Positions 16,250-30,347 of a stretch of 64,000 nucleotides of DNA are shown in pieces. Numbering within the stretch: position 1 is the first letter of the stretch; each line of letters starts with the position of its first letter. The translations under genes and the position numbers were made by a program. The notes beneath the pieces are model-generated. The model had not been told where the DNA came from. It did not search any database and saw nothing but the letters and a program-made list of their open reading frames with translations. Source of the stretch: Nitrosopumilus sp. Its GTDB lineage: Archaea > Thermoproteota > Nitrososphaeria > Nitrososphaerales > Nitrosopumilaceae. The stretch is from NCBI GenBank assembly GCA_963667665.2, contig OY763927.2, positions 960,001 through 1,024,000 on the forward strand, written 5' to 3'.

Positions 16250-16597
16250 ATGATGCGAACAAGACTAACATATGTACCACTAGAAGTAGCTGACCAATTC
16301 GAAGATTTCATCATAGAAAGAGATGTGCAAATACTTGATGCAGTAAAAGCAAGAACACGAGATTACAGTACACTATCACTGTTGAAGCTGTTGTATCAGC
16401 TTAGAGGAAATCCTATGACATTCTCAAATTTGTATTCAAAGTCAAAGATTAGAATGAAGAAATCATTTTTGAATTATCTACATCTGTGTGTGAATTACAA
16501 CTTTATCAAAAAAGAGCCAGTAGGGCCAAATGTAATCTATACAATTACAGACAAAGGACGAACTATGTTGAATCTCTTTATCAACAAAGAGTTGTAA
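16250..16597 (+). CDS. Winged helix-turn-helix transcription regulator
   Basis: MTFSNLYSKS...SFLNYLHLCVNYNFI...YTITDKG wing motif. Confidence 0.8.
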   Translation: MMRTRLTYVPLEVADQFEDFIIERDVQILDAVKARTRDYSTLSLLKLLYQLRGNPMTFSNLYSKSKIRMKKSFLNYLHLCVNYNFIKKEPVGPNVIYTITDKGRTMLNLFINKEL

Positions 16598-16646: not shown

Positions 16647-18341
16647 TTAATAGTAATGATGCATTTGTCTTTGTTCTAATCCTTCTTGCTCAAAGTGATT
16701 GTGAGACTTTCCACCATCATGATGAGCATGAACTACTCCATCAATATGACAATGGGTATTGTCAATCAAATTCTTCATGAACACATCATCTACATTCAGT
16801 ATCATGTTAGCAACTTCAACTGCAGTTTTGAAAACTTGTTGTTTAACAACTACTGTTTCAATAATGTCAGATGATGATACGTCAGATATCTTTCTAGTGT
16901 TAGAATTTATTCCATACCATCTTATCTTGCCATTCAATGTTGCAAATTTTGCTCGAAATTGTGTTAATGTATCTAACACATCCATTCCCACATTCTGTGC
17001 TAATGTTAATGGTATTTCATCTACAGCATCTGCAAATCTTTGTATTACAATTTGTTCCTTACCTTCAACAGTTACAGATTGCTTTCTAATTTTTTGTGCA
17101 ACTATTCCTTCAACAGAGCCAGCACCATATACAATGAATGGATGTTCAATGAAATTTCTTAATACATAAAATGCATTCAAAGCATTTCTGTGAAATTCAT
17201 CTAGAAATCGTTTTGAGTTGGCCCTCAATAACAAAGTTACAGATTTTGGATTGTTTCCACCTTCCACAAAAACCATTTTATCTCCACCTACAGTCTTCTC
17301 ATACACTCTTTTTGCAAAACCTAATTCATCGTTAGATATTTTCTCAATATTTTTACAGATCTCAGCACCAGTCGCCTTTTCTAGCCACCATAAATCATTG
17401 TACTTTACTCGCCGCATTGAGATAATACCATGTTTTGCAAGAGCTTCTTGAACAAACTCATTAACTCCTTTCCTAGATATTACGACATTAGCCCCCGAAT
17501 CTACAATATTTTTTACAAGTGCAAGTAAGTCTGTGTTTTCTTGGTTAAGGAATTGGTTCATCTGTTTGGGAGAGTCTATTTCTATCTCTGCCTCCGTTCT
17601 TGTTCTCATTGGTTCTAATGATTCATTAATTAACAGAATCTTGGCATTGTGAATAGTTCTAGGCATTGCAGAACTATCTATTGTTTTATCAATCACAGTA
17701 CCTTTGATCAATTGTATTTCTGTAGCATTTCCTATTTTTTCTTCAATTTTTATGTCATCAATATCTATCTGCCCTCTTTCCAAGTTGGCAATATCACATA
17801 CAGCCTCAATGATAATATCTACAATCTTTGTATTTTCTTCTTGTAAATCAAAAATTGCTTTTCCCTCTAAACATGTAGTTAGTAATTGTCGCATTATTTT
17901 TCTGTCTCTTCTGTTTGATTTTATCTTAATTTCATCCAATGTTTCTAAAGCACAATCTAAACTTTGATTATAACCGCGAGTAATTGTAGCAACAGGAATT
18001 CCAATTTTTAATAATTCTTCAGCATGTTTGAGTAAACTACCAATCAAAACAGCTGTAGATGTTGTACCATCTCCAACATGAGTATCAACGGTGTTAATAG
18101 ATTCTACAACTGATTTAGCTGCAGGATGATCAACATCAACTTTTCTCAAAAACGCACCACCGTGACTTGTAATTGTATCTTCTCCAAGTATGTCAATGTA
18201 TATTTTTTCCATACCGCGCGGACCAAGAGATGTTTTAACTATTTCCGTAACAAGTTTACCTGAAATTAAATTATACATTTGTGATTCTTGTAATCCAATA
18301 CGTGAAATATCTTGATCAAGTAAACCAGGGTATTTCATCAC
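16647..18341 (-). CDS. Divergent group II chaperonin (thermosome-like) with His-rich C-terminal tail
   Basis: SLGPRGMEK, GDGTTST, RRVK and IPLTLAQNVG motifs; tail HCHIDGVVHAHHDGGKSHNH...HHYY; GGAGG SD at 18348-18352. Confidence 0.88.
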   Translation of the reverse strand: MMKYPGLLDQDISRIGLQESQMYNLISGKLVTEIVKTSLGPRGMEKIYIDILGEDTITSHGGAFLRKVDVDHPAAKSVVESINTVDTHVGDGTTSTAVLIGSLLKHAEELLKIGIPVATITRGYNQSLDCALETLDEIKIKSNRRDRKIMRQLLTTCLEGKAIFDLQEENTKIVDIIIEAVCDIANLERGQIDIDDIKIEEKIGNATEIQLIKGTVIDKTIDSSAMPRTIHNAKILLINESLEPMRTRTEAEIEIDSPKQMNQFLNQENTDLLALVKNIVDSGANVVISRKGVNEFVQEALAKHGIISMRRVKYNDLWWLEKATGAEICKNIEKISNDELGFAKRVYEKTVGGDKMVFVEGGNNPKSVTLLLRANSKRFLDEFHRNALNAFYVLRNFIEHPFIVYGAGSVEGIVAQKIRKQSVTVEGKEQIVIQRFADAVDEIPLTLAQNVGMDVLDTLTQFRAKFATLNGKIRWYGINSNTRKISDVSSSDIIETVVVKQQVFKTAVEVANMILNVDDVFMKNLIDNTHCHIDGVVHAHHDGGKSHNHFEQEGLEQRQMHHYY

Positions 18342-18449
18342 TTTTAGCCTCCTTTTAGATATTAAAACATGCTTACTGACGAATTTAATTTACCAAAAAT
18401 AAAGAACACAAAATAAAACGAACAGTAAATTGTTTATTATTTGATTTTA

Positions 18450-20054
18450 CTACGTTACTTCCTTACTTGTAGCATCATCAGGTCCGGGTGTGTCAGGTCC
18501 TGGTGTATTAGAGCCAGGTCCACCTGCACTTGTCGCTGAAGTATCATTTTGGAAGTGTAACAAATCTTCTCCGGCAATTACATCTTCTTCAGGTGGTACA
18601 TAGTCGCGTACATCGTGTCTTGCTTTTCCTGGATACTTTCCTTGGGTTGCTTGTGCTACTATAAAGAACAAAGCAAATGCAATGATAGGAGGTATCATTG
18701 TATCCAATCCTGCCCATTCTTCTGGCATTGTAAAGAAGAATGCAAATCGAATTAGTGAACCAACAACAAGAGCTACAACGGCTGCGGGCATGTTTGCCTT
18801 TTTCCAGAACAAACCTAATGTGAGAGGAGCAAATGCTCCGGCAAAAACTATGTCAAATGCTAAGATGAGATAAATTCCAGGAGCTGGAACAAAGTAACCG
18901 ATAGCAGTTCCAACTATCATCATTGGAATAATTACAACACGAGTAACTTTGAGTAATTGACTATCACTCCAATTTGGTTTGCCCATCCATCGTCTTCGGA
19001 TAATTCTCTGCATCATATTTCTTGAAATTACACTGGAAATTGCCAATAGACCACCACTGGCAGTAGACATTGATGCTCCAACTACGCCCATTAGTATTGC
19101 TGCACCAATTGCAAATGGCAATACTTCTGTAGATAGTAAAGGTAAAGCCATGTTTGGATCAATATCTATTGGAAGATAGAAGAATGCTACAATTCCTAAC
19201 ATGCTAGTTGGAATTACTGTAAACATTGTAAGTGCGCCACCCATCAATGCACCTCTTTGTGCTGTTTTCGGGTTCTTAGCTGAAAATACTCGCTCCATAA
19301 AGTCAAGCGCAACGATATCTCCCAATCCTAGCGCAAGAATAGCACCCCAATTAATCAGCGCGCCATTAGCCATATCATACAATCCCGATAGATCCAAAAA
19401 CGCTGGTGGAGCGTTGTTGTAAATGACATCCCATGGAGTATCTGCAAAGCCACCATAGAAGAAAAGGAAACCAGCCCAAAATGCACCAATTGCAAGATAA
19501 ACTTGGAACAGATTTGTATAAGCCGATGCAAATAATCCTCCAGCAACTGTATAGATTACCACAACTATAGCTGAAATTGCAATACCATAGAAATAATTTA
19601 TACCAAACACAACTTCCAAAATAAATCCACTAGCTGCTAAATTGCCTGCAACAAGAATTAGAAAACTAACAATCATAAGAATGCCGGAAAGACCTTCTGC
19701 TCCATTTCCAAATCTTCTGAAATAGAAATCAGGTAATGTGATCATTGACATTTTGTTTAATGGTTTAGCATAGAATGCAGCTGTTACAAACAGACATAAT
19801 CCTAAACCAATTGGAATAACTGCTCCTGCCCAAAATCCAAATTCAAATACAAGAGCAACATTGCCTAACGATGAATTTCCATCAACTGCTTGAGCTGCAA
19901 GCATAGTTCCAACCATAAACAAAGGCAAACTTTTTCCTGCAATGATCAGTCGCTTACCACTATTTTTGACTAGTTTACCTGCAAATACCCCTACTGCAAG
20001 TGTAATGATAATAAATACGGCAACAGCGATGCCAAACCCATCCATCTCCACCAT
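18450..20054 (-). CDS. Sodium:solute symporter (SSS/SLC5, choline-transporter-like clade)
   Basis: About 13 TM helices; AGKSLP, FYAKPL..ITLPDF, YTVAGGL, ERVFSAK, ASMSTAS and LGLFWKKAN motifs. Confidence 0.88.
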   Translation of the reverse strand: MVEMDGFGIAVAVFIIITLAVGVFAGKLVKNSGKRLIIAGKSLPLFMVGTMLAAQAVDGNSSLGNVALVFEFGFWAGAVIPIGLGLCLFVTAAFYAKPLNKMSMITLPDFYFRRFGNGAEGLSGILMIVSFLILVAGNLAASGFILEVVFGINYFYGIAISAIVVVIYTVAGGLFASAYTNLFQVYLAIGAFWAGFLFFYGGFADTPWDVIYNNAPPAFLDLSGLYDMANGALINWGAILALGLGDIVALDFMERVFSAKNPKTAQRGALMGGALTMFTVIPTSMLGIVAFFYLPIDIDPNMALPLLSTEVLPFAIGAAILMGVVGASMSTASGGLLAISSVISRNMMQRIIRRRWMGKPNWSDSQLLKVTRVVIIPMMIVGTAIGYFVPAPGIYLILAFDIVFAGAFAPLTLGLFWKKANMPAAVVALVVGSLIRFAFFFTMPEEWAGLDTMIPPIIAFALFFIVAQATQGKYPGKARHDVRDYVPPEEDVIAGEDLLHFQNDTSATSAGGPGSNTPGPDTPGPDDATSKEVT

Positions 20055-20536: not shown

Positions 20537-21049
20537 GTGCCAGGAAAAGGATATTCTACATTTGGTATGAAACCTGTAATTACAACTAGATTACAAGAAG
20601 CAACAGACAAGAGTTATCCTGGAATGTTTCTTCCCAGTACATTAATTATCATAATGAATGAGATCAAGAGAGGATATTATTCAGTAGAATCACATAAAAT
20701 AAAATTAGATTTGTCTGGTAGATACAATACCATAACTATAAGATCAGATGTTAAAGAATGGTCAGTAGAAAATCATGAAAAACTTGGAAAAGATTATGAA
20801 GAAAGATACAATGTAAAATGCTTTACAAAATTTGTGAGTTATTTTATAGTTAACATGTTAGAATCAAAAAGTGATGCTCAAAACCATTCTATTAGTCTAA
20901 AGGAATTAGATTTCAGTTGGCTTCAAGATAAATATAAAAAACAAAAAAAGAGTCCTGAAGGAATTTCTAGTTTTGAACGATTTGCAGATAGTTACATTAA
21001 TGATTTACTGGTAAAGATTAAAGCGGCAAAAGAAATCTTAACATTATAA
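20537..21049 (+). CDS. Hypothetical protein with internal repeats, possibly tandem ribbon-helix-helix
   Basis: Three segments starting YSTFGMK / YNTITIR / NHSISLK, each followed by helices. Confidence 0.6.
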   Translation: MPGKGYSTFGMKPVITTRLQEATDKSYPGMFLPSTLIIIMNEIKRGYYSVESHKIKLDLSGRYNTITIRSDVKEWSVENHEKLGKDYEERYNVKCFTKFVSYFIVNMLESKSDAQNHSISLKELDFSWLQDKYKKQKKSPEGISSFERFADSYINDLLVKIKAAKEILTL

Positions 21050-21082: not shown

Positions 21083-21334
21083 TTAAAGTGGTGTCATAGT
21101 ATCAATTAATCGTGCATTAACAACATGACAATCTTTTTCTTGTATTTCAAGGTCTACAGTATATTTCAAACCATCTAGCATGAAATTAACTTGAACATCC
21201 CAAGATACTCTAGGTCCTTTTTCAGGAACTTGGAATGTTTCATTCACTCTAAAGTCACTTACGTCACCATATAATGCATTGATTATTCTACGAGACTCTC
21301 TATCGATGTCTTCTGATGTGCTAACAGCCTGCAT
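21083..21334 (-). CDS. Small hypothetical protein (possibly PepSY-like fold)
   Basis: 83-aa ORF; helix followed by beta strands WDVQV..YTVDLEI..VVN. Confidence 0.65.
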   Translation of the reverse strand: MQAVSTSEDIDRESRRIINALYGDVSDFRVNETFQVPEKGPRVSWDVQVNFMLDGLKYTVDLEIQEKDCHVVNARLIDTMTPL

Positions 21335-22792: not shown

Positions 22793-23908
22793 ATGGGCAT
22801 GGAATTTTATGGTGATGATTTTCAAGGTGCAGATGTTGCGCCATTTGTAGGAATTAATACATTTTTACATCTTCCTTGGGTAAAGACACACAAAGAATTA
22901 CTTGAAGCAAAACCAGACGTTGCAATTATTGGAGAGCCATTTGACTTTGGTACTACTATCCGCCCCGGAGCAAGATATGGGCCAAGAGCAATTAGAGCTG
23001 CATCTACAATTCCATCACCACCTTTTGAACGATTCAACATTGAAACGGGTGCAGACCCATTTGGAACTTTTCGAACAGTAGATTATGGAGACGTCATAGT
23101 TTCACCAGGGGATGTTATAGAATCACACAAGAGGATGACTCTAAAAGTTAAGGAAGTGTTAGAGGCAGATGGTATTCCTGTAATGCTTGGAGGAGATCAC
23201 TCAATTACTTATGCAAACGTTAGAGCATTTCAGAAAAAATACAAAAACATAGGCATGATTCATTTTGACACACACGCTGATTGTGCACCACAAGGACTAA
23301 CGGGTTTCAAGTATGATCATGGAGCACATATTAGAAGAATAATGGAGATGGGTTGTCTTAAAGGAAAGAACTACTCGCTTGTAGGTCCAAGAGGATATTG
23401 GCCAGGACGTGATTTGTACAAATGGATGTCAGACCAAGATTTCCAATGGTTTACAATGCTTGATGTTGAAGAATTAGGAATTGATGTTATTGCAAAAGAA
23501 ATAGCTGATAGAGCAAATGATGGAACAGATGCAGTCTATCTTAGTTGGGATATTGATTCTTTTGATCCTGCTTATGCACCAGGTACGGGAGAACCAGAAC
23601 CAAACGGACTTACATCAAGAGAAGGCATTAGAATGATTCGTCTATTATCAAAATCATTTGATCCTGATAGATTTGCAATGGATTTGGTAGAAATTGCTCC
23701 AGCATATGATGTCAGTGATTCAAGTTCTTACAACGGAGGAATCACATCTGGATTAGGACAAAGATTAGTTATTGAACTATTGGCAGGATTATCATTAACA
23801 AAGAGAGGTTTGGAGGGAGGAGATCCTGTAAGACCAAAGGCATACATGGGTACTGGAAACACATACAGTTTTGGTAATCCAACATCTAAAATTCCAAAGA
23901 GAGATTAA
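22793..23908 (+). CDS. Ureohydrolase (agmatinase/arginase/guanidinase superfamily), substrate unknown
   Basis: RPGARYGP, GGDHS, DTHAD, SWDIDSFDP, PGTG and EIAP: all dimetal ligands present. Confidence 0.92.
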   Translation: MGMEFYGDDFQGADVAPFVGINTFLHLPWVKTHKELLEAKPDVAIIGEPFDFGTTIRPGARYGPRAIRAASTIPSPPFERFNIETGADPFGTFRTVDYGDVIVSPGDVIESHKRMTLKVKEVLEADGIPVMLGGDHSITYANVRAFQKKYKNIGMIHFDTHADCAPQGLTGFKYDHGAHIRRIMEMGCLKGKNYSLVGPRGYWPGRDLYKWMSDQDFQWFTMLDVEELGIDVIAKEIADRANDGTDAVYLSWDIDSFDPAYAPGTGEPEPNGLTSREGIRMIRLLSKSFDPDRFAMDLVEIAPAYDVSDSSSYNGGITSGLGQRLVIELLAGLSLTKRGLEGGDPVRPKAYMGTGNTYSFGNPTSKIPKRD

Positions 23909-24317: not shown

Positions 24318-25076
24318 TTGATTGAAACAATAATGGGAATGTTACAAGCCAACAACCCTTTTTTAATTATAATTGCTGGTTTGATGATTGGATTATTGCA
24401 TGCTTTTGAGCCTGATCATCTTAGTGCAGTTTCCACTCAACTATTAAAAAACAACAATAATTCAAAGAGTTCAAAAAAACGAGACTTGCAAAATCTTACC
24501 ATTATCTCTTCTTTAAGAGGAGCACTTTGGGGAATGGGACATACATCAAGTATTATTTTAATCGGACTATTGATTGCAGGTTTATCATTAAACATACCTG
24601 ATGATTTTTTTATTAGTGCAGAAGTGCTTGTTGGTTTAATGTTGATTACTTTAGCAATTTTTACATTTACAAACAAAAGTATCTTTAAACAAAAACATGT
24701 TCATCCTCACACACATTCAGACGGAATTTCTCACACACATTCTCATGAACATAATGAAAATCACAAACATGGTCACAAAGCATACCTAATTGGTTGTGTT
24801 CACGGTATTGCAGGTAGTGGTAGTCTTGTTGCATTATTTGCATCTACAATGAATGGTTTTGATATGATGATTTATTTTCTAATTTTATTTGGCATAGGCA
24901 GTATAATTGGTATGACTGTTGCTAGCGGCGTTATGGGATTACCATTTATTTTATTATCAAAAGTTAATTCTATTACTAAATATCTAAGATACACAATAGC
25001 TAGTATAACTTTCATAATTGGTCTTAATATTATAATTACAATTGGATTAGATAATAAATTATTTTCTTTAAACTAA
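24318..25076 (+). CDS. UreH/NicO-like nickel transporter or Ni-handling membrane protein
   Basis: GLLHAFEPDH, WGMGH, a His-rich loop and GCVHGIAGS motifs. Confidence 0.85.
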   Translation: MIETIMGMLQANNPFLIIIAGLMIGLLHAFEPDHLSAVSTQLLKNNNNSKSSKKRDLQNLTIISSLRGALWGMGHTSSIILIGLLIAGLSLNIPDDFFISAEVLVGLMLITLAIFTFTNKSIFKQKHVHPHTHSDGISHTHSHEHNENHKHGHKAYLIGCVHGIAGSGSLVALFASTMNGFDMMIYFLILFGIGSIIGMTVASGVMGLPFILLSKVNSITKYLRYTIASITFIIGLNIIITIGLDNKLFSLN

Positions 25077-25095: not shown

Positions 25096-26808
25096 TTAAA
25101 ACAAATTGTATAGTCTTGACATAGAAACTTTGTCGGCAGGATCTGTTGTTGCAATTTTCCCATCAACTTTAACTTCATATGTTTCAGGATTTACCTCAAT
25201 GTTTGGAGTAAGATCATTATACAACATGTCTTTCTTTCCAATAGAACGGCAATTTTTCACAGGAACCAATTTCTTTTTTGAATTGATTTCAGATTCAATA
25301 CCCTTGTCTAGTGCCAGTTGAGATGTGAATGTTACAGAAGTGGAATATTTTGTTTGGCCAAGGGCTCCAAACATAGGACGATACATGACAGGTTCAGTAG
25401 TAGGAATTGATGCATTAGGATCACCCATAAGGGAATATGCAATAAAACCGCCTTTTATGATCATTTTTGGTTTGACTCCAAAAAATGCAGGGGACCAAAT
25501 TACAATATCAGCTAATCGTCCAGGCTGCAATGAGCCCACATAATCTGAAACTCCATGAGTTATGGCAGGATTTATTGTAATTTTAGCAAGATAACGCTTC
25601 ACTCTGAAATTATCATTTTGAGCATTGTCTTCAGGTAATGCACCAGCCATCTTTTTCATTTTATCAGCAGTCTGCCAATTTCTGGTTGTAACTTCTCCTA
25701 CTCTTCCCATAGCTTGACTATCAGAAGACATCATACTCAACACACCAATATCATGTAGTACATCCTCTGCAGCAATAGTCTCACCCCTAATTCTAGACAT
25801 TGCAAAGGAAACATCTTCAGGTACTGATGAGTTTAGATGATGGCAAACCATCATCATGTCAAGATGTTCTGCTAGTGTGTTTACTGTAAATGGTCTTGTA
25901 GGATTTGTAGATGAAGGAAGTATATTTTCTTCACCTGCAATTTTCATAATATCTGGAGCATGTCCACCTCCAGCACCTTCAGTATGATAAGTATGAATTG
26001 TTCTTCCTGCAATTGCTTCAATTGTGTCATCAACAAATCCACATTCATTTAGAGTATCAGTATGGATTGCAACTTGGGTATCAGTTTTGTCTGCAACCCT
26101 CAAAGCAGAATCAATCGTAGCAGGAGTTGTACCCCAATCTTCATGTAGTTTTAGTCCACAAGCTCCTGCTTCAATTTGTTCAAGTAATGCAGATTCACGA
26201 GAGTCATTTCCTTTTGCAAGAAATCCAAAGTTTAGTGGTAATTCATCAACAGACTCAATCATTCTATGAATATTCCATTTACCAGGAGTGCATGTTGTTG
26301 CATTTGTTCCATCAGCTGGACCAGTTCCACCGCCAATCATCGTGGTGGTACCATTACATATTGCATGTATTGCTTGTTGAGGAGAAATAAAATGAATATG
26401 TGAATCAATTGTTCCAGGAGTACAAATGGTATGCTCGCCGGCAATTATCTCAGTGTTAGAAGATATTACCATATCAATATCATCCATGATGTCAGGATTA
26501 CCAGCATTTCCTATTCCAACAATTTTTCCATCTTTTACTCCAATGTCTGCTTTGATAATTCCCAAAATAGGATCCATTACAATTGCGTTAGTAATTACAA
26601 GATCAAGTGATTCTGCTCTAGATACGCCACTTGCTTGCCCCTGCCCATCTCTTATGCTCTTTCCTCCTCCAAATACAGCCTCATCACCATACGTAGTCAA
26701 GTCTTTTTCAATTTCAATAATCAAATCAGTATCTGCAAGACGGATTCGGTCACCCACAGTAGGACCAAACAAATCAACATGTGTTTTTCTTGGAATATCT
26801 AGAGTCAT
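25096..26808 (-). CDS. ureC: Urease alpha subunit
   Basis: [37 protein letters not shown] and SDSQAMGR motifs. Confidence 0.99.
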
Positions 26809-27182
26809 TGGGTCATTCCTTTGAATCCTTTTTCAGTAGCTTTTTTGAATGCCTCTTCTTGCTTTTCTTCTAGACTTCCATTCACCAGTCCACTAAATCC
26901 ATAAACAATTTTTTTTCCTCCAAATTCCGTTAGTTCAATTTCTTTTGTATCTCCGGGTTCAAATCTAACTGATGTGCCGGCAGGAATATTGAGATGGTAT
27001 CCGTAAGATTGTTTCCTTTGAAATTCAAGAGCTTTGTTTACTTCAAAAAAGTGTGTATGTGATCCTACCTGTATTGGTCTATCTCCAGTATTTCTAACAC
27101 TAACAGATGTAGTTGATTTTCCTACGTTAGCAATGATAGGTTCATTAGATGAGAAGTATTCGCCAGGAATCATAGTTATCAC
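26805..27182 (-). CDS. ureB: Urease beta subunit
   Basis: [18 protein letters not shown] and [12 protein letters not shown] motifs. Confidence 0.98.
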
Positions 27183-27481
27183 ACAATAGGGTCATGAATT
27201 GTTACAAGTTTAGTTCCATCTTCAAATGTTGCCTCCACTTGAATAGATGTAATTAATTCTACAACTCCAGGTAAAACATCATCTTTTGATAGAACATTTT
27301 TTCCAGAGCTCATAAGTTCCGGAACAGATCTTCCATCTCTTGCACCTTCTAAGATATGATCAGCAAGAATAGATACAGCTTCAGGATGATTAAGTTTCAA
27401 TCCACGATTTTTTCTTCTTCGAGCAAGTTCTGATGTAACAAAAACATTTAGTTTTTCTAATTCTCTAGGAGTAAGCATCAT
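27179..27481 (-). CDS. ureA: Urease gamma subunit
   Basis: [19 protein letters not shown] and [17 protein letters not shown] motifs; start taken at ATG 27481. Confidence 0.98.
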
Positions 27482-27566
27482 TGAATTGGATAGTGTATCA
27501 GAGTATTTAATCATTAAAACGGTAAAATCTAACAAAGTATAACTCTGTCAAAAAACAAAGTTACTT

Positions 27567-28052
27567 GTGTTAGAAGTTAATTCCCCTATAGGAAATATTT
27601 TTCATGATAAAGAATTTGATAATTTGAAAAATGAGAATTTTGAAAGACTCAAGATTTCCCGAATTGAATTAGAAAAAAGAATTTTGAGAAGAAAGACAGA
27701 TCGAGGAACAGATATTGGTTTGAATTTAGACCCAGGAGTGAAACTTTGCAATGGAGATATTATCAAAAATGGAGATACAAAAATTGTTGTGGAGCAATTA
27801 CCAGAAAAAATAATTACAGTTAAACTAAAAAATGAAAAGATGACAGATGTAATGGTGCTGTTAGGGCACATCATTGGAAACAGACACAGACCGATATCCA
27901 TTCAAGGAGATGAGATTTCATTTCCAATTCAAGCAGATTCAGAAAAGGAAATATTTACAAAATTATTTCAGAGCATTATCAACCATATCAACATTACAGT
28001 AGAAGAACAGATATTTTCCCCTCAATTAGGTGCAGATGTACATGAACATTGA
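27567..28052 (+). CDS. ureE: Urease accessory protein UreE
   Basis: RRKTDRGTDIG and GHIIGNRH motifs; C-terminal HEH. Confidence 0.92.
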   Translation: MLEVNSPIGNIFHDKEFDNLKNENFERLKISRIELEKRILRRKTDRGTDIGLNLDPGVKLCNGDIIKNGDTKIVVEQLPEKIITVKLKNEKMTDVMVLLGHIIGNRHRPISIQGDEISFPIQADSEKEIFTKLFQSIINHINITVEEQIFSPQLGADVHEH

Positions 28053-28743
28053 CGAGATAGAACAAGAGTTAGGGGTAATGCAGTTATCTGACTCATTTTT
28101 TCCTACAGGTATTTTTGCTACTTCAAATGGATTAGAATTTCTTTTCACAGAAAAAAAAATTCAAGATATGGCAGACTTGATAGAAATTATCAGAATTAAC
28201 ATTACTCAGCAGATAGGACCATCAGATTGTGTTGCACTTGCAAATGCATTTGATAGTGCAAACAAATGTGATTTTGAAAAAGTGATTGAAGTAGACAATA
28301 TTGCTTTTGCCACTAAATCAATTAAAGAAATACGCAATTCATCAGTAAGATCGGGGGTTCAATTAGTAAAATGTGTTTCAGAATTTATAACAGATGATGA
28401 AATTTTAAATCAATACAAAAACAACATAACAAAAAACAATGCACATGGGATATTTCCTGTGGCATTTGCAATTTGTTGTAATGCATTAAAAATTAAAAAA
28501 GAAAAAAGCATGACGATGTTATTGTATGGTTTTACTGTTGGGGTTGTAGGTGCAGCATTACGATTAGGATTAATTCAACATTTTGAAGGTCAAAAAATAA
28601 TTCACAATATAAAACCAATCATCAGTCAAACTATCAAAGAATATTCTAATGAATCACTTTTTGAAATGTGGCAATTTGCACCCCAAATAGATATTGTTCA
28701 AATGTCACATGAAAAAATGGATTCAAAAATGTTTATTACATAA
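28042..28743 (+). CDS. ureF: Urease accessory protein UreF
   Basis: [16 protein letters not shown] and C-terminal HE...MFIT motifs. Confidence 0.92.
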
Positions 28744-28760
28744 AAATTAGATTTTTCATC

Positions 28761-29417
28761 ATGACTCACATCGCAAGAATCGGTATTGGTGGACCAGTTG
28801 GTTCTGGTAAAAGCATGTTAATTGAACGCTTGGTGCCAATGTTGGCTGAAAAGGGATACAGTGTAAGTATAATCTCAAATGATGTGATTTCAAAAGAAGA
28901 TGCTGACAGAATGAGGGATAATTTAGCTACGAAAAAAGGACTACTTCCAGAAAATTTAGTGATTGGTCTTGCAACTGGCGGTTGTCCACATACTGCAATC
29001 AGAGAAGATCCTTCCATGAATCTTGCAGTAATAGAAGAAATAGAATCAGAGCATCCTGATCTTGACCTTATAATTATTGAAAGTGGAGGAGATAACATTA
29101 CAACTACATTCAGTCCCATTCTTGCAGATTATTCTATTTACATAGTTGATGTTGCAGGAGGAGACAAGTATCCAAGAAAAGGCGGATTAGGAATTGAGAG
29201 TTGTGATCTTTTAGTAATTAACAAGATAGATCTTGCCATGATGGTTGGAGCAGACCTTGATATCATGAAAAGAGATGCAGAAAAGATTAGAAAAGAAAAA
29301 CCATTTGAATTTATCAATTGTAAAACAGATGAAGGTATAATGAAGATAACTGAACACATTATTCATGATGTCTTGTTTGATTCTGCACCAAAATCAGAAC
29401 TTACACAAAAGGTGTGA
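28761..29417 (+). CDS. ureG: Urease accessory GTPase UreG
   Basis: [26 protein letters not shown] and NKID motifs. Confidence 0.97.
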
Positions 29418-29420
29418 TTA

Positions 29421-30347
29421 TTGAATAAACTAGAATACTACACACCAAATGACATACCAAAAGAAATTCAGACATATGATTCAGAAATAAAACAATTAGG
29501 AGTTGGAAAATCAGGAAAAGTAGGCATTCTTGATTTGGAACTTCAAAAAAACAGTAATGGTAAAACAGTTGTTACAAAACAATTTTCTCAAGTTCCGTTA
29601 CAATTTCAACGAGCATTATATCCTGAAAACTCACTTCCTGAAATGGCATATCTTTATGTTATTTCTCCATCAGGAGGAGTTCTACAAGGGGATAGATACA
29701 GAATGGATGTGTCATTAAAAAATAAGGCCATCGCTCATATGACAACTCAAGGTGCCACTAGCATCTACAGTATGGATTCAAATTTTGCATCACAAATTGT
29801 AAACATCACACTTGATGAGAATTGTTATTTAGAATACATCCCTGATCAAATAATACCAAACAAGAATTCCAGGTATTATCAAAAAGTTAATCTGAATATT
29901 CACGATAATGCAACTTTGGTATATTCAGAAATTTTAACTCCTGGAAGAGTAGCCATGGATGAATCTTTTGAATATGATATTTGTTACCTAAGAACACACT
30001 GTAAGAACCAAGACAAAAAAATAAGGTTTTTAGAAAATACAAAAATTGAGCCAAAAAAACAAAAATTAAAAAATTTTGGAATATTAGGCAAATACAACAC
30101 AGTTGGAACAGTTTACATCTTGACTAGAAAAGAAAATGTAATTGAACTAGAAAATTCAATAAATGAAAGAATCAAAAAGACAGATGCAATGTCTATTGGA
30201 ACATCCATTCTTCCAGATGAATCCGGAATAGTCATCAGAATTTTAGGAGATAAGACAGATAATATTTCTGATGTAATTTTCAAGATACTTGAAATTAGTA
30301 GAAAGAAAATTCTTGGTGCATCAATTAGTAAAATAAGAAAAAACTAG
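29421..30347 (+). CDS. ureD: Urease accessory protein UreD
   Basis: SPSGGVLQGD, TTQGAT, LEYIPD and PGRVA..E.F motifs. Confidence 0.93.
   Translation: MNKLEYYTPNDIPKEIQTYDSEIKQLGVGKSGKVGILDLELQKNSNGKTVVTKQFSQVPLQFQRALYPENSLPEMAYLYVISPSGGVLQGDRYRMDVSLKNKAIAHMTTQGATSIYSMDSNFASQIVNITLDENCYLEYIPDQIIPNKNSRYYQKVNLNIHDNATLVYSEILTPGRVAMDESFEYDICYLRTHCKNQDKKIRFLENTKIEPKKQKLKNFGILGKYNTVGTVYILTRKENVIELENSINERIKKTDAMSIGTSILPDESGIVIRILGDKTDNISDVIFKILEISRKKILGASISKIRKN

Follow-up and report, generated by a model that had tools for sequence, protein, structure and literature searches.

A His-tailed thermosome paralogue in the urea-utilization loci of ammonia-oxidizing archaea is a candidate nickel-handling chaperonin

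We analysed a stretch of 64,000 nucleotides from a Nitrosopumilus sp. genome (the window; contig OY763927.2, positions 960,001 to 1,024,000), in which a chaperonin gene lies immediately after a symporter gene and 8 kb from ureC. The genome measures 1.89 Mb at about 33% GC. The chaperonin, a His-tailed thermosome paralogue that we call THSH, has its named close homologues in Nitrosopumilus, and the window also holds an arginase-family hydrolase (Agm), a divergent urease-gamma-like protein, a Ni/Co-permease-like membrane protein and the urease structural and accessory genes (Table 1). The THSH frame is open throughout its 564 codons; because relatives share the conserved N-terminus MKYP, we place the probable start at the ATG rather than at the GTG that opens the frame.

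THSH belongs to the group II chaperonins by both domain content and predicted fold. Pfam Cpn60_TCP1 (PF00118) matches residues 31-522 with 448.5 bits over profile positions 1-487 of 490, a full-length domain. Among the NCBIfam models, THSH passes thermosome_alpha (491.1 bits, cut-off 450) and thermosome_beta (483.1 bits, cut-off 400) and falls far below the cut-off of TIGR02339, thermosome_arch (481.2 versus 671.1 bits). The genome encodes two further Cpn60_TCP1 proteins, both canonical (ITNDGA, GDGTTS, R-S-x-H-D-A and GGM-type tails) and 41-43% identical to THSH; on the Pfam profile they reach 634 and 622 bits against 449 for THSH. An AlphaFold2 model from an 81-row alignment (mean predicted local distance difference test (pLDDT) score 86.7, predicted template modelling (TM) score 0.83) is confident to about residue 522. 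Helix 257-281 forms the built-in lid (helical protrusion), and the alignment shows no deletion in this region. Foldseek matches the model to the Mm-cpn and KS-1 thermosomes with TM scores of 0.84-0.93 at about 36-38% identity. Sequence and model together indicate a full-length group II chaperonin paralogue with a complete thermosome fold and built-in lid. A decaying pseudogene was considered and ruled out, given the strong conservation and the zero stops in any listed orthologue.

Table 1. Features of the THSH locus, in window coordinates.
Feature	Position	Strand	Remarks
THSH, His-tailed thermosome paralogue	16647..18341	-	563 aa from ATG 18338, 564 from GTG 18341; stop codon 16649-16647
His-rich C-terminal tail, residues 527-564	16650..16763	-	Three H-x-H pairs and terminal HHYY; predicted disordered
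Asn389 codon at the place of a catalytic Asp (Mm-cpn D386)	17175..17177	-	HMMER alignment
GDGTTS nucleotide (P-)loop, intact	18057..18074	-	Read from sequence
His60 codon at the place of a catalytic Asp (Mm-cpn D60, TNDG motif)	18162..18164	-	HMMER alignment
Symporter-THSH spacer	18342..18449	-	T-rich tract 18418-18395, TATA-like TTTTAATAT 18367-18359, GGAGG 18352-18348; read by eye
Sodium:solute symporter (SSF family)	18450..20054	-	Conserved THSH neighbour
orf170, AOA-specific protein of unknown family	20537..21049	+	Module companion in both families
orf83, small AOA-specific protein of unknown family	21083..21334	-	Module companion in both families, often right after ureC
Agm, arginase-family ureohydrolase	22793..23908	+	Distribution matches THSH 22/23
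Divergent urease-gamma-like protein, 131 aa	23908..24303	+	Start overlaps Agm stop
Ni/Co-permease-like membrane protein	24318..25076	+	HAFEPDH (H-x4-D-H) near N-terminus; long His-rich loop
ureA-ureB-ureC (urease gamma, beta, alpha)	25096..27535	-	
ureE-ureF-ureG-ureD accessory genes	27567..30347	+	
AOA, ammonia-oxidizing archaea.

The confident part of the model stops short of the C-terminal tail. The tail, DNTHCHIDGVVHAHHDGGKSHNHFEQEGLEQRQMHHYY, packs 9 His and 1 Cys into 38 residues, against a His frequency of 2.2% in the stop-to-stop frames of at least 60 amino acids in this genome, and with pLDDT below 50 it is predicted to be disordered. We tabulated 157 distinct sequences of the THSH clade, 121 of which come from a list ranked by likeness to THSH, so that the marine type is over-represented. 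His 530, 532, 538, 540 and 547 are present in 157 of 157, His 549 in 156 of 157 and His 561 in 156 of 156; the marine form of the tail also carries a Cys within its first H-C-H. The tail is maintained across two families whose proteins are merely 46-50% identical overall. With seven of its His invariant or nearly so, the tail is evidently under strong constraint at the sequence level. Two proteins extend the picture of His-rich elements in thermosomes. One soil-type THSH (genome G172, L073 9810-11657 (+), 615 aa) has an extra His/Asp-rich insert of about 50 residues in its apical domain besides its His tail. An unrelated group II chaperonin representative of 567 aa (protein P0256), 31% identical, has a His-rich tail of another kind, with 7 His among the protein's last 40 residues; His-tailed thermosomes may have arisen more than once.

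The second departure from canonical thermosomes lies in the ATPase site. In a HMMER alignment of THSH with M. maripaludis Mm-cpn (5w79), ITSHGG stands opposite VTNDGV and RNALNA opposite RAVDDA, and counting chain residues on this alignment equates His60 and Asn389 with the catalytic D60 and D386; D45 of Mm-cpn corresponds to E45. THSH retains the nucleotide loop, and D91, T93 and K161, the last of which we take to be the nucleotide-sensing Lys, are present in 157 of 157 clade sequences. Over the same sequences the catalytic pair reads H/N in 135, D/D in 15, S/D in 2, D/S in 2, N/N in 1 and N/D in 1, with one fragment, and every member of the main marine-type group has H/N. Most members of the other family, f15, retain TKDG, R-x-x-L-D, GDGTTS and both Asp; the locus layout given by Abby et al. 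(2018, PMC5797428) suggests that f15 is the soil family. The position of N59 varies in the clade (S, K or N), and inside the marine clade the fifth residue of the P-loop and the GGG loop are variable, unlike the fixed H and N. By these comparisons the loss of the Asp pair is a derived, later event of the marine branch, where H and N are fixed and not drifting, and, because most soil-type members retain both Asp, it is the His tail and not the Asp loss that defines the THSH clade. Chance or decay as the origin of these features is excluded because the H/N pair recurs in 135 of 157 sequences and five tail His in 157 of 157. In Mm-cpn, the D386A exchange keeps ATP binding, blocks hydrolysis and leaves the chaperonin open, according to the passages available from that study (PMC5019054). 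By analogy, it is reasonable to call THSH ATPase-poor: the H/N form probably still binds nucleotide and hydrolyses it poorly, in the marine lineage only.

THSH and its relatives form a coherent clade. A search through 5.8 billion clustered proteins gave a list of 120 homologues that are 75-95% identical to THSH, and among these, all that cover the relevant sites share its substitutions and tail. At the 50%-identity cluster level the tail occurs in only two full-length clusters and a few fragments; the remaining representatives are at most 43% identical to THSH, and their alignment to it stops at about residue 521. A tree of 59 proteins, built without the tail columns, places the 22 His-tail rows on one side of a branch with a Shimodaira–Hasegawa-like approximate likelihood-ratio (SH-aLRT) support of 100 and a stem of 0.62, a value to be taken with some caution because the tree came from a quick search. 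As far as these sequences reach, the clade is seen only in two families of ammonia-oxidizing archaea (AOA). A first-pass annotation, made from the window's letters, had described a chaperonin frame with a His-rich C-terminus in place of a GGM-type or acidic tail and with both catalytic Asp replaced beside an intact GDGTTS loop. The read-through frame, the Cpn60_TCP1 match and the fold match bear out the first of these points, and the clade-wide tail the second. Alignment and phylogeny leave the Asp replacement standing and unite the His-tailed proteins; that replacement holds for this gene and the marine lineage and not for the clade as a whole.

To place the gene in its genomic context, we counted it by profile searches and locus inspection in two samples, 61 genomes of the window's family and 201 genomes of the order. 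In the family sample, a clade-profile search finds THSH in 22 of 61 genomes with scores of at least 693 bits; the full-length copies align right through to the profile's end and two copies (G057 and G025) are cut, while the best canonical match reaches 593 bits and ends near position 522. Urease alpha is present in 33 of the 61, and THSH occurs in 22 of these 33 and in 0 of the 28 urease-negative genomes. An Agm orthologue (at least 79% identical) is found in 23 of 61, namely the 22 THSH carriers and G018, in which Agm sits on a 5.8-kb contig. The order sample yields 30 carriers by profile search, 12 of 41 in family f1 and 18 of 40 in f15, with none in the 120 genomes of its 18 other families by the same search. 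Locus inspection added G172 and G197, making 32. All 30 profile-positive genomes have a strong urease-alpha match, and the contig of G197 stops after ureB. Agm occurs in 37 of the 201 genomes, including all 32 THSH carriers. Within the window's own genus (16 genomes of the order sample), THSH occurs in 4 and Agm in the same 4, urease alone in 2, and none of the three in 10. Two or more canonical paralogues accompany THSH in every positive genome. The negative tallies of the order sample include G157, which is flagged unpublished, and the positive claims are independent of it. A protein-level genome search missed the divergent copy of G016, as the profile search did those of G172 and G197.

The nature of the metal that the tail may bind is suggested by a neighbouring gene. 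The membrane protein encoded next to ureA-ureB-ureC carries H-x4-D-H, which we take to be a signature of Ni/Co transporters and which is present in 121 of 121 listed homologues. It falls below the Pfam DsbD_2 cut-off and its names in public records vary (RcnA, TauE/SafE, HflD), with several homologues named RcnA-type Ni/Co permease by the Joint Genome Institute (JGI); it is likely, judged by its sequence, a Ni/Co permease to which most records give a wrong name or none. Its His-rich loop, HVHPHTHSDGISHTHSHEHNENHKHGH, shares the motif H.H.[DN]G..H.H with the THSH tail. A scan of 6,642 stop-to-stop frames of at least 60 amino acids (959,572 residues) found exactly two copies of this motif in the genome, the THSH tail and the permease loop, where about 0.002 would be expected by an estimate from residue frequencies. 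The loop motif is maintained in 119 of 121 permease homologues, and in one genus the loop reads HIHGDGTTHSH, a near match to the soil-type THSH tail THTHGDGTTHSH. Elsewhere in the genome, outside the window, a 122-aa frame (G000:C1:1661775 (+)) contains HGHSHNDGTEPHSHDGSEPHEH, which is near the shared motif with one extra spacer residue; it may encode another small metal-binding protein.

In its distribution THSH follows Agm more tightly than it follows urease. Agm is 72-94% identical across three families and more conserved than its neighbours. Its best solved relatives, in the range of about 1e-48 to 4e-50, are a guanidinobutyrase (3nio, 4e-50) and the Ni guanidinases 7esr/7oi1 and 9fek. We do not call it a guanidinase, given that Glu replaces the key Trp stressed by Palatinszky et al. 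2024 (their Trp313, chain residue 315 by count). A housekeeping agmatinase is ruled out as well: the genome has two other arginase-family genes (G000:C1:471126 and 826738), and the Agm orthologue is present in merely 23 of 61 family genomes. The gamma-like protein scores 28.3 bits on Urease_gamma, just above the cut-off. With few exceptions its gene comes after Agm in the loci of the two families, and the protein might pair with the hydrolase as a second subunit or mimic a docking partner of the urease accessory machinery. Passages of a soil study report the symporter clustered with an 'agmatinase' (PMC11131427).

Mapping the window proteins by tblastn onto 32 fetched loci revealed a recurrent set comprising the symporter, orf170, orf83, a tetratricopeptide-repeat (TPR) protein, Agm, the gamma-like protein, the His-loop membrane protein and THSH. 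In 8 loci THSH lies directly downstream of ureE-ureF-ureG-ureD on the same strand; in G013, a genome of the same genus whose THSH copy is 86% identical, only 60 bases separate it from ureD. Two soil-type loci have THSH divergent from ureA-ureB-ureC, with Agm and the gamma-like gene on its other flank. Where ureABC is far off (G006, G030, G014, G052, G193, G123 and G138), THSH still adjoins the symporter or the Agm and gamma-like genes. Four inspected urease-positive genomes that have neither THSH nor Agm carry a plain ureCBA/ureEFGD locus and a different symporter (25% identical). The UreE of the window ends in ...GADVHEH, with no His-rich tail.

In the window, the symporter lies upstream of THSH in the same orientation, 108 bases from the GTG, and the GGAGG Shine–Dalgarno sequence and same-strand placement reported in the first pass are both seen. 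Its suggestion that the two genes are co-transcribed is unsupported as a conserved feature: among 8 relatives in which they are adjacent, the arrangement is tandem in 6 and divergent in 2, and a T-rich tract and a TATA-like box, which might act as terminator and promoter, lie between them. Logan contigs from four metatranscriptome runs of one study cover the symporter, orf83, Agm, parts of ureABC, and ureG; their depth is 0 over the THSH bins 16835-17968 and none bridges 18341-18450, although such contigs cannot show absence. The functional proposals of the first-pass annotation fare better in these comparisons. Its link of the chaperonin to urease and the ureohydrolase gains support from the confinement to urease-positive genomes, the 22-of-23 match with Agm and the positions beside ureD, ureA or the symporter. 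Nickel, the metal it named, is supported as likely by the core His motif that recurs only in the Ni/Co-permease-like neighbour.

For soil AOA, a urease-linked chaperonin has been published before. Abby et al. (2018, PMC5797428) describe an Hsp60 homologue (arCOG01257) conserved in the urease loci of Ca. Nitrosocaldus and Nitrososphaerales and propose that it stabilizes urease, citing urease stabilization by HspA/HspB of Helicobacter pylori. Judged from the relevant passages of that paper, this homologue is probably of the same clade as the f15 THSH found here, which lies divergent to ureABC, with the same urease-helper proposal; those passages mention neither the tail, nor the Asp loss, nor the arginase-family link. 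Their printed statement that Nitrosopumilales lack a urease-linked chaperonin is corrected by our finding THSH in 22 of the 61 family genomes. An extra thermosome beside symporter and urease genes has also been noted in the hadal metagenome-assembled genome MTA1, where it was read as a pressure adaptation (Zhong et al. 2020, PMC7265257); it very likely belongs to the same orthologue group as THSH, and the passages on it mention neither catalytic residues, nor tail, nor distribution. Searches of the text of open-licence papers turned up none that describes the His tail, the missing Asp pair, the co-distribution with Agm or the motif common to THSH and the permease. A different protein occupies a likely Nitrosocaldus-type locus (G068, family f9), where a tail-less 516-aa chaperonin lies between ureC and ureE (L079 6626-8176 (-)). 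This protein is 25% identical to THSH, has both catalytic Asp and GDGTTT, and lies below all thermosome cut-offs; it would mean that a urease operon took in a chaperonin independently a second time.

Known folding helpers offer points of comparison. Canonical thermosomes (Mm-cpn, Thermococcus KS-1 alpha and the genome's own copies) share family, fold, lid helix, GDGT loop and K161 with THSH, which differs in the H/N pair at D60/D386, the replaced N59, a fixed His motif in place of a GGM or acidic tail, and its patchy occurrence as an accessory gene. HspA of H. pylori also has a His/Cys-rich Ni-binding C-terminus in a urease-dependent host, and, like THSH, a proposed role in supplying Ni to a Ni enzyme; with HspB (GroEL) it acts on urease. 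Unlike THSH it is a group I co-chaperonin (GroES) of about 118 aa with an unrelated tail and no issue of ATPase activity. E. coli SlyD follows the same logic, a folding helper whose disordered His/Cys-rich tail feeds Ni to hydrogenase, but has the unrelated fold of an FKBP prolyl isomerase and is a monomer without a cage. In mycobacterial GroEL1 the GGM tail is replaced by a His-rich tail, as in THSH, and metal roles have been proposed for such paralogues (PMC5904260); these are group I proteins with a short alternating-His run, and the passages seen of that source make no link to urease or a Ni permease. THSH thus shows the conserved, disordered His-rich terminal segment of nickel metallochaperones of the HspA, SlyD, HypB and UreE-tail types, and, among the 61 family genomes, the conserved ure linkage and restriction to urease-positive genomes of a urease accessory gene. 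Of the hallmarks of group II chaperonins it has the domain, the fold and the GDGTT loop with its Lys, and H60 and N389 in place of the catalytic Asp pair. Overall, it is a group II chaperonin that has probably become a nickel-handling helper.

Taken together, we favour, at somewhat better than even, the reading that THSH is a nickel-binding group II chaperonin dedicated to an extended urea-utilization module of AOA and hydrolysis-deficient in marine lineages. We base it on the features of the sequence and its fold, on the clade and its distribution across genomes, and on the gene neighbourhood and the motif common to tail and permease. From these we infer that a metal is bound and which one, which client is served, how the subunits assemble and that ATPase activity is impaired. 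The module would consist of the symporter, Agm with the gamma-like protein, the Ni/Co-type permease, ureABC and ureEFGD, served by THSH. Chaperonin C-termini face the cavity. If THSH forms or joins a thermosome ring, its tails, with seven to nine His each, would by analogy line the cavity floor and could hold Ni2+ beside an enclosed or bound apo-enzyme, so that folding or assembly of the client, urease and/or Agm, would be coupled to metal supply. The marine H/N form might then serve as a holdase or a platform for Ni, or else join active subunits as one of low activity. Pointers to the client are split: the position in ureEFGD operons points to urease, the near one-to-one distribution to the Agm hydrolase.

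Several observations weigh against this interpretation. The complete UreEFGD set is present, and by textbook standards urease needs no extra Ni donor; arginase-family enzymes are usually Mn-dependent, and Agm lacks the Trp of the characterized Ni guanidinases. His60 could serve as an alternative general base, in which case 'hydrolysis-deficient' is possibly wrong, and the variable fifth P-loop residue and GGG loop may mean that nucleotide binding itself is decaying. Absences are soft, with at least two carriers (G172 and G197) missed by the profile search. Co-occurrence may stem in part from linkage and shared descent, and as the genes are linked and related genomes are not independent the counts overstate functional coupling. 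Finally, 11 of 33 urease-positive family genomes do without THSH, which is hence not universally required, and four f4 genomes have the whole module (Agm and urease) with no chaperonin in the locus; by this comparison THSH is dispensable in some lineages.

Other explanations share part of this evidence. In a variant that differs in assembly state, THSH co-assembles with the two canonical thermosome subunits, to which it brings tails that bind Ni and an apical domain specific to the client; hydrolysis and lid closure would come from its neighbours. The loss of the catalytic pair in a protein that retains the lid, K161, D91 and T93 fits such a specialized subunit, as do the canonical paralogues, at least two in every THSH-positive genome, and eukaryotic CCT tolerates weak-ATPase subunits. 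Its N-terminal segment is unlike that of canonical subunits (MKYPGLLDQD... versus ...PVVLLKEGGTE...), however, and the majority of soil-type members seem to have a competent ATPase and might function by themselves; we give mixed rings a real, if minority, probability. A nickel store or buffer with no folding role, in which the scaffold is a 16-18-mer carrier of His tails comparable to Hpn or the HspA tail in Helicobacter, would explain the dense invariant tail, the extra His-rich insert of one member, the adjoining Ni/Co-type permease and the missing hydrolysis residues of the marine lineage. A pure store would need neither a conserved 520-residue body with lid helix and clade-specific apical residues (the NDLxW motif) nor the canonical ATP site that soil-type members retain, and we regard storage alone as unlikely.

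The tail might instead bind another metal (Zn, Co, Cu or Mn) or serve, for example, as a metal-dependent switch of ring assembly. H-x-H pairs with Asp ligands are not Ni-specific, the marine tail has a Cys in its first H-C-H, the arginase family is classically Mn-dependent, and AOA have a high copper demand. Yet the surroundings are Ni-specific, with urease and UreEFGD and a permease bearing H-x4-D-H, some of whose homologues JGI names RcnA, so that a metal other than nickel seems quite improbable. Least plausible is a general stress or high-pressure paralogue unconnected with urea metabolism. Extra chaperonin paralogues often serve stress; the pressure reading given in the passages on the hadal thermosome (PMC7265257) also lies in this direction. 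Such a role is very hard to reconcile with a gene that is absent from all 28 urease-negative family genomes, occurs only with the Agm module, is shared by the marine-type and soil-type families, and lies inside or adjacent to ure operons.

The favoured reading, a nickel-binding chaperonin of the urea module, also allows a bolder form that we consider rather doubtful: the chaperonin cage as a metal insertase. Ni2+ would pass by ligand exchange from the cytoplasmic permease loop to the THSH tails and on to the apo-enzyme in the cavity, which could be Agm as well as or instead of urease, and the marine ATP site, with H60 and N389 fixed and D91 kept, would have been rebuilt into a metal- or nucleotide-sensing site instead of merely degenerating. 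If true, THSH would be the first group II chaperonin in nature to operate with no ATPase cycle, and a Ni-dependent enzyme of the arginase family that supplies urease with urea in marine nitrifiers would be indicated. Both marine and soil AOA use urea as a major substrate, and urease requires nickel, which is scarce in seawater. The association of a nickel-type tail with urease, a Ni/Co-type permease and Agm suggests a new route of Ni-enzyme maturation in archaea, and the two-enzyme module of hydrolase and urease may widen the organic nitrogen sources for nitrification. How Ni reaches arginase-family enzymes without HypA/HypB-type loaders is a question left open for the comammox guanidinase in the passages available on it (PMC11410670), to which THSH offers a possible answer. 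A natural group II chaperonin with both hydrolysis residues replaced, beside D/D sisters, also provides a comparison for the need of the ATPase cycle.

Three small proteins of the locus were looked at besides. For orf170 and orf83, the ESM Atlas returned only AOA hypothetical clusters, with weak leads (scores below 0.9) to ribbon-helix-helix for orf170 and PepSY for orf83. A 115-aa frame (orf115, 16250-16597 (+)) that is convergent with THSH matches no Pfam family and resembles Sso10a only faintly; RNA contigs from all four runs of the metatranscriptome study cover it.

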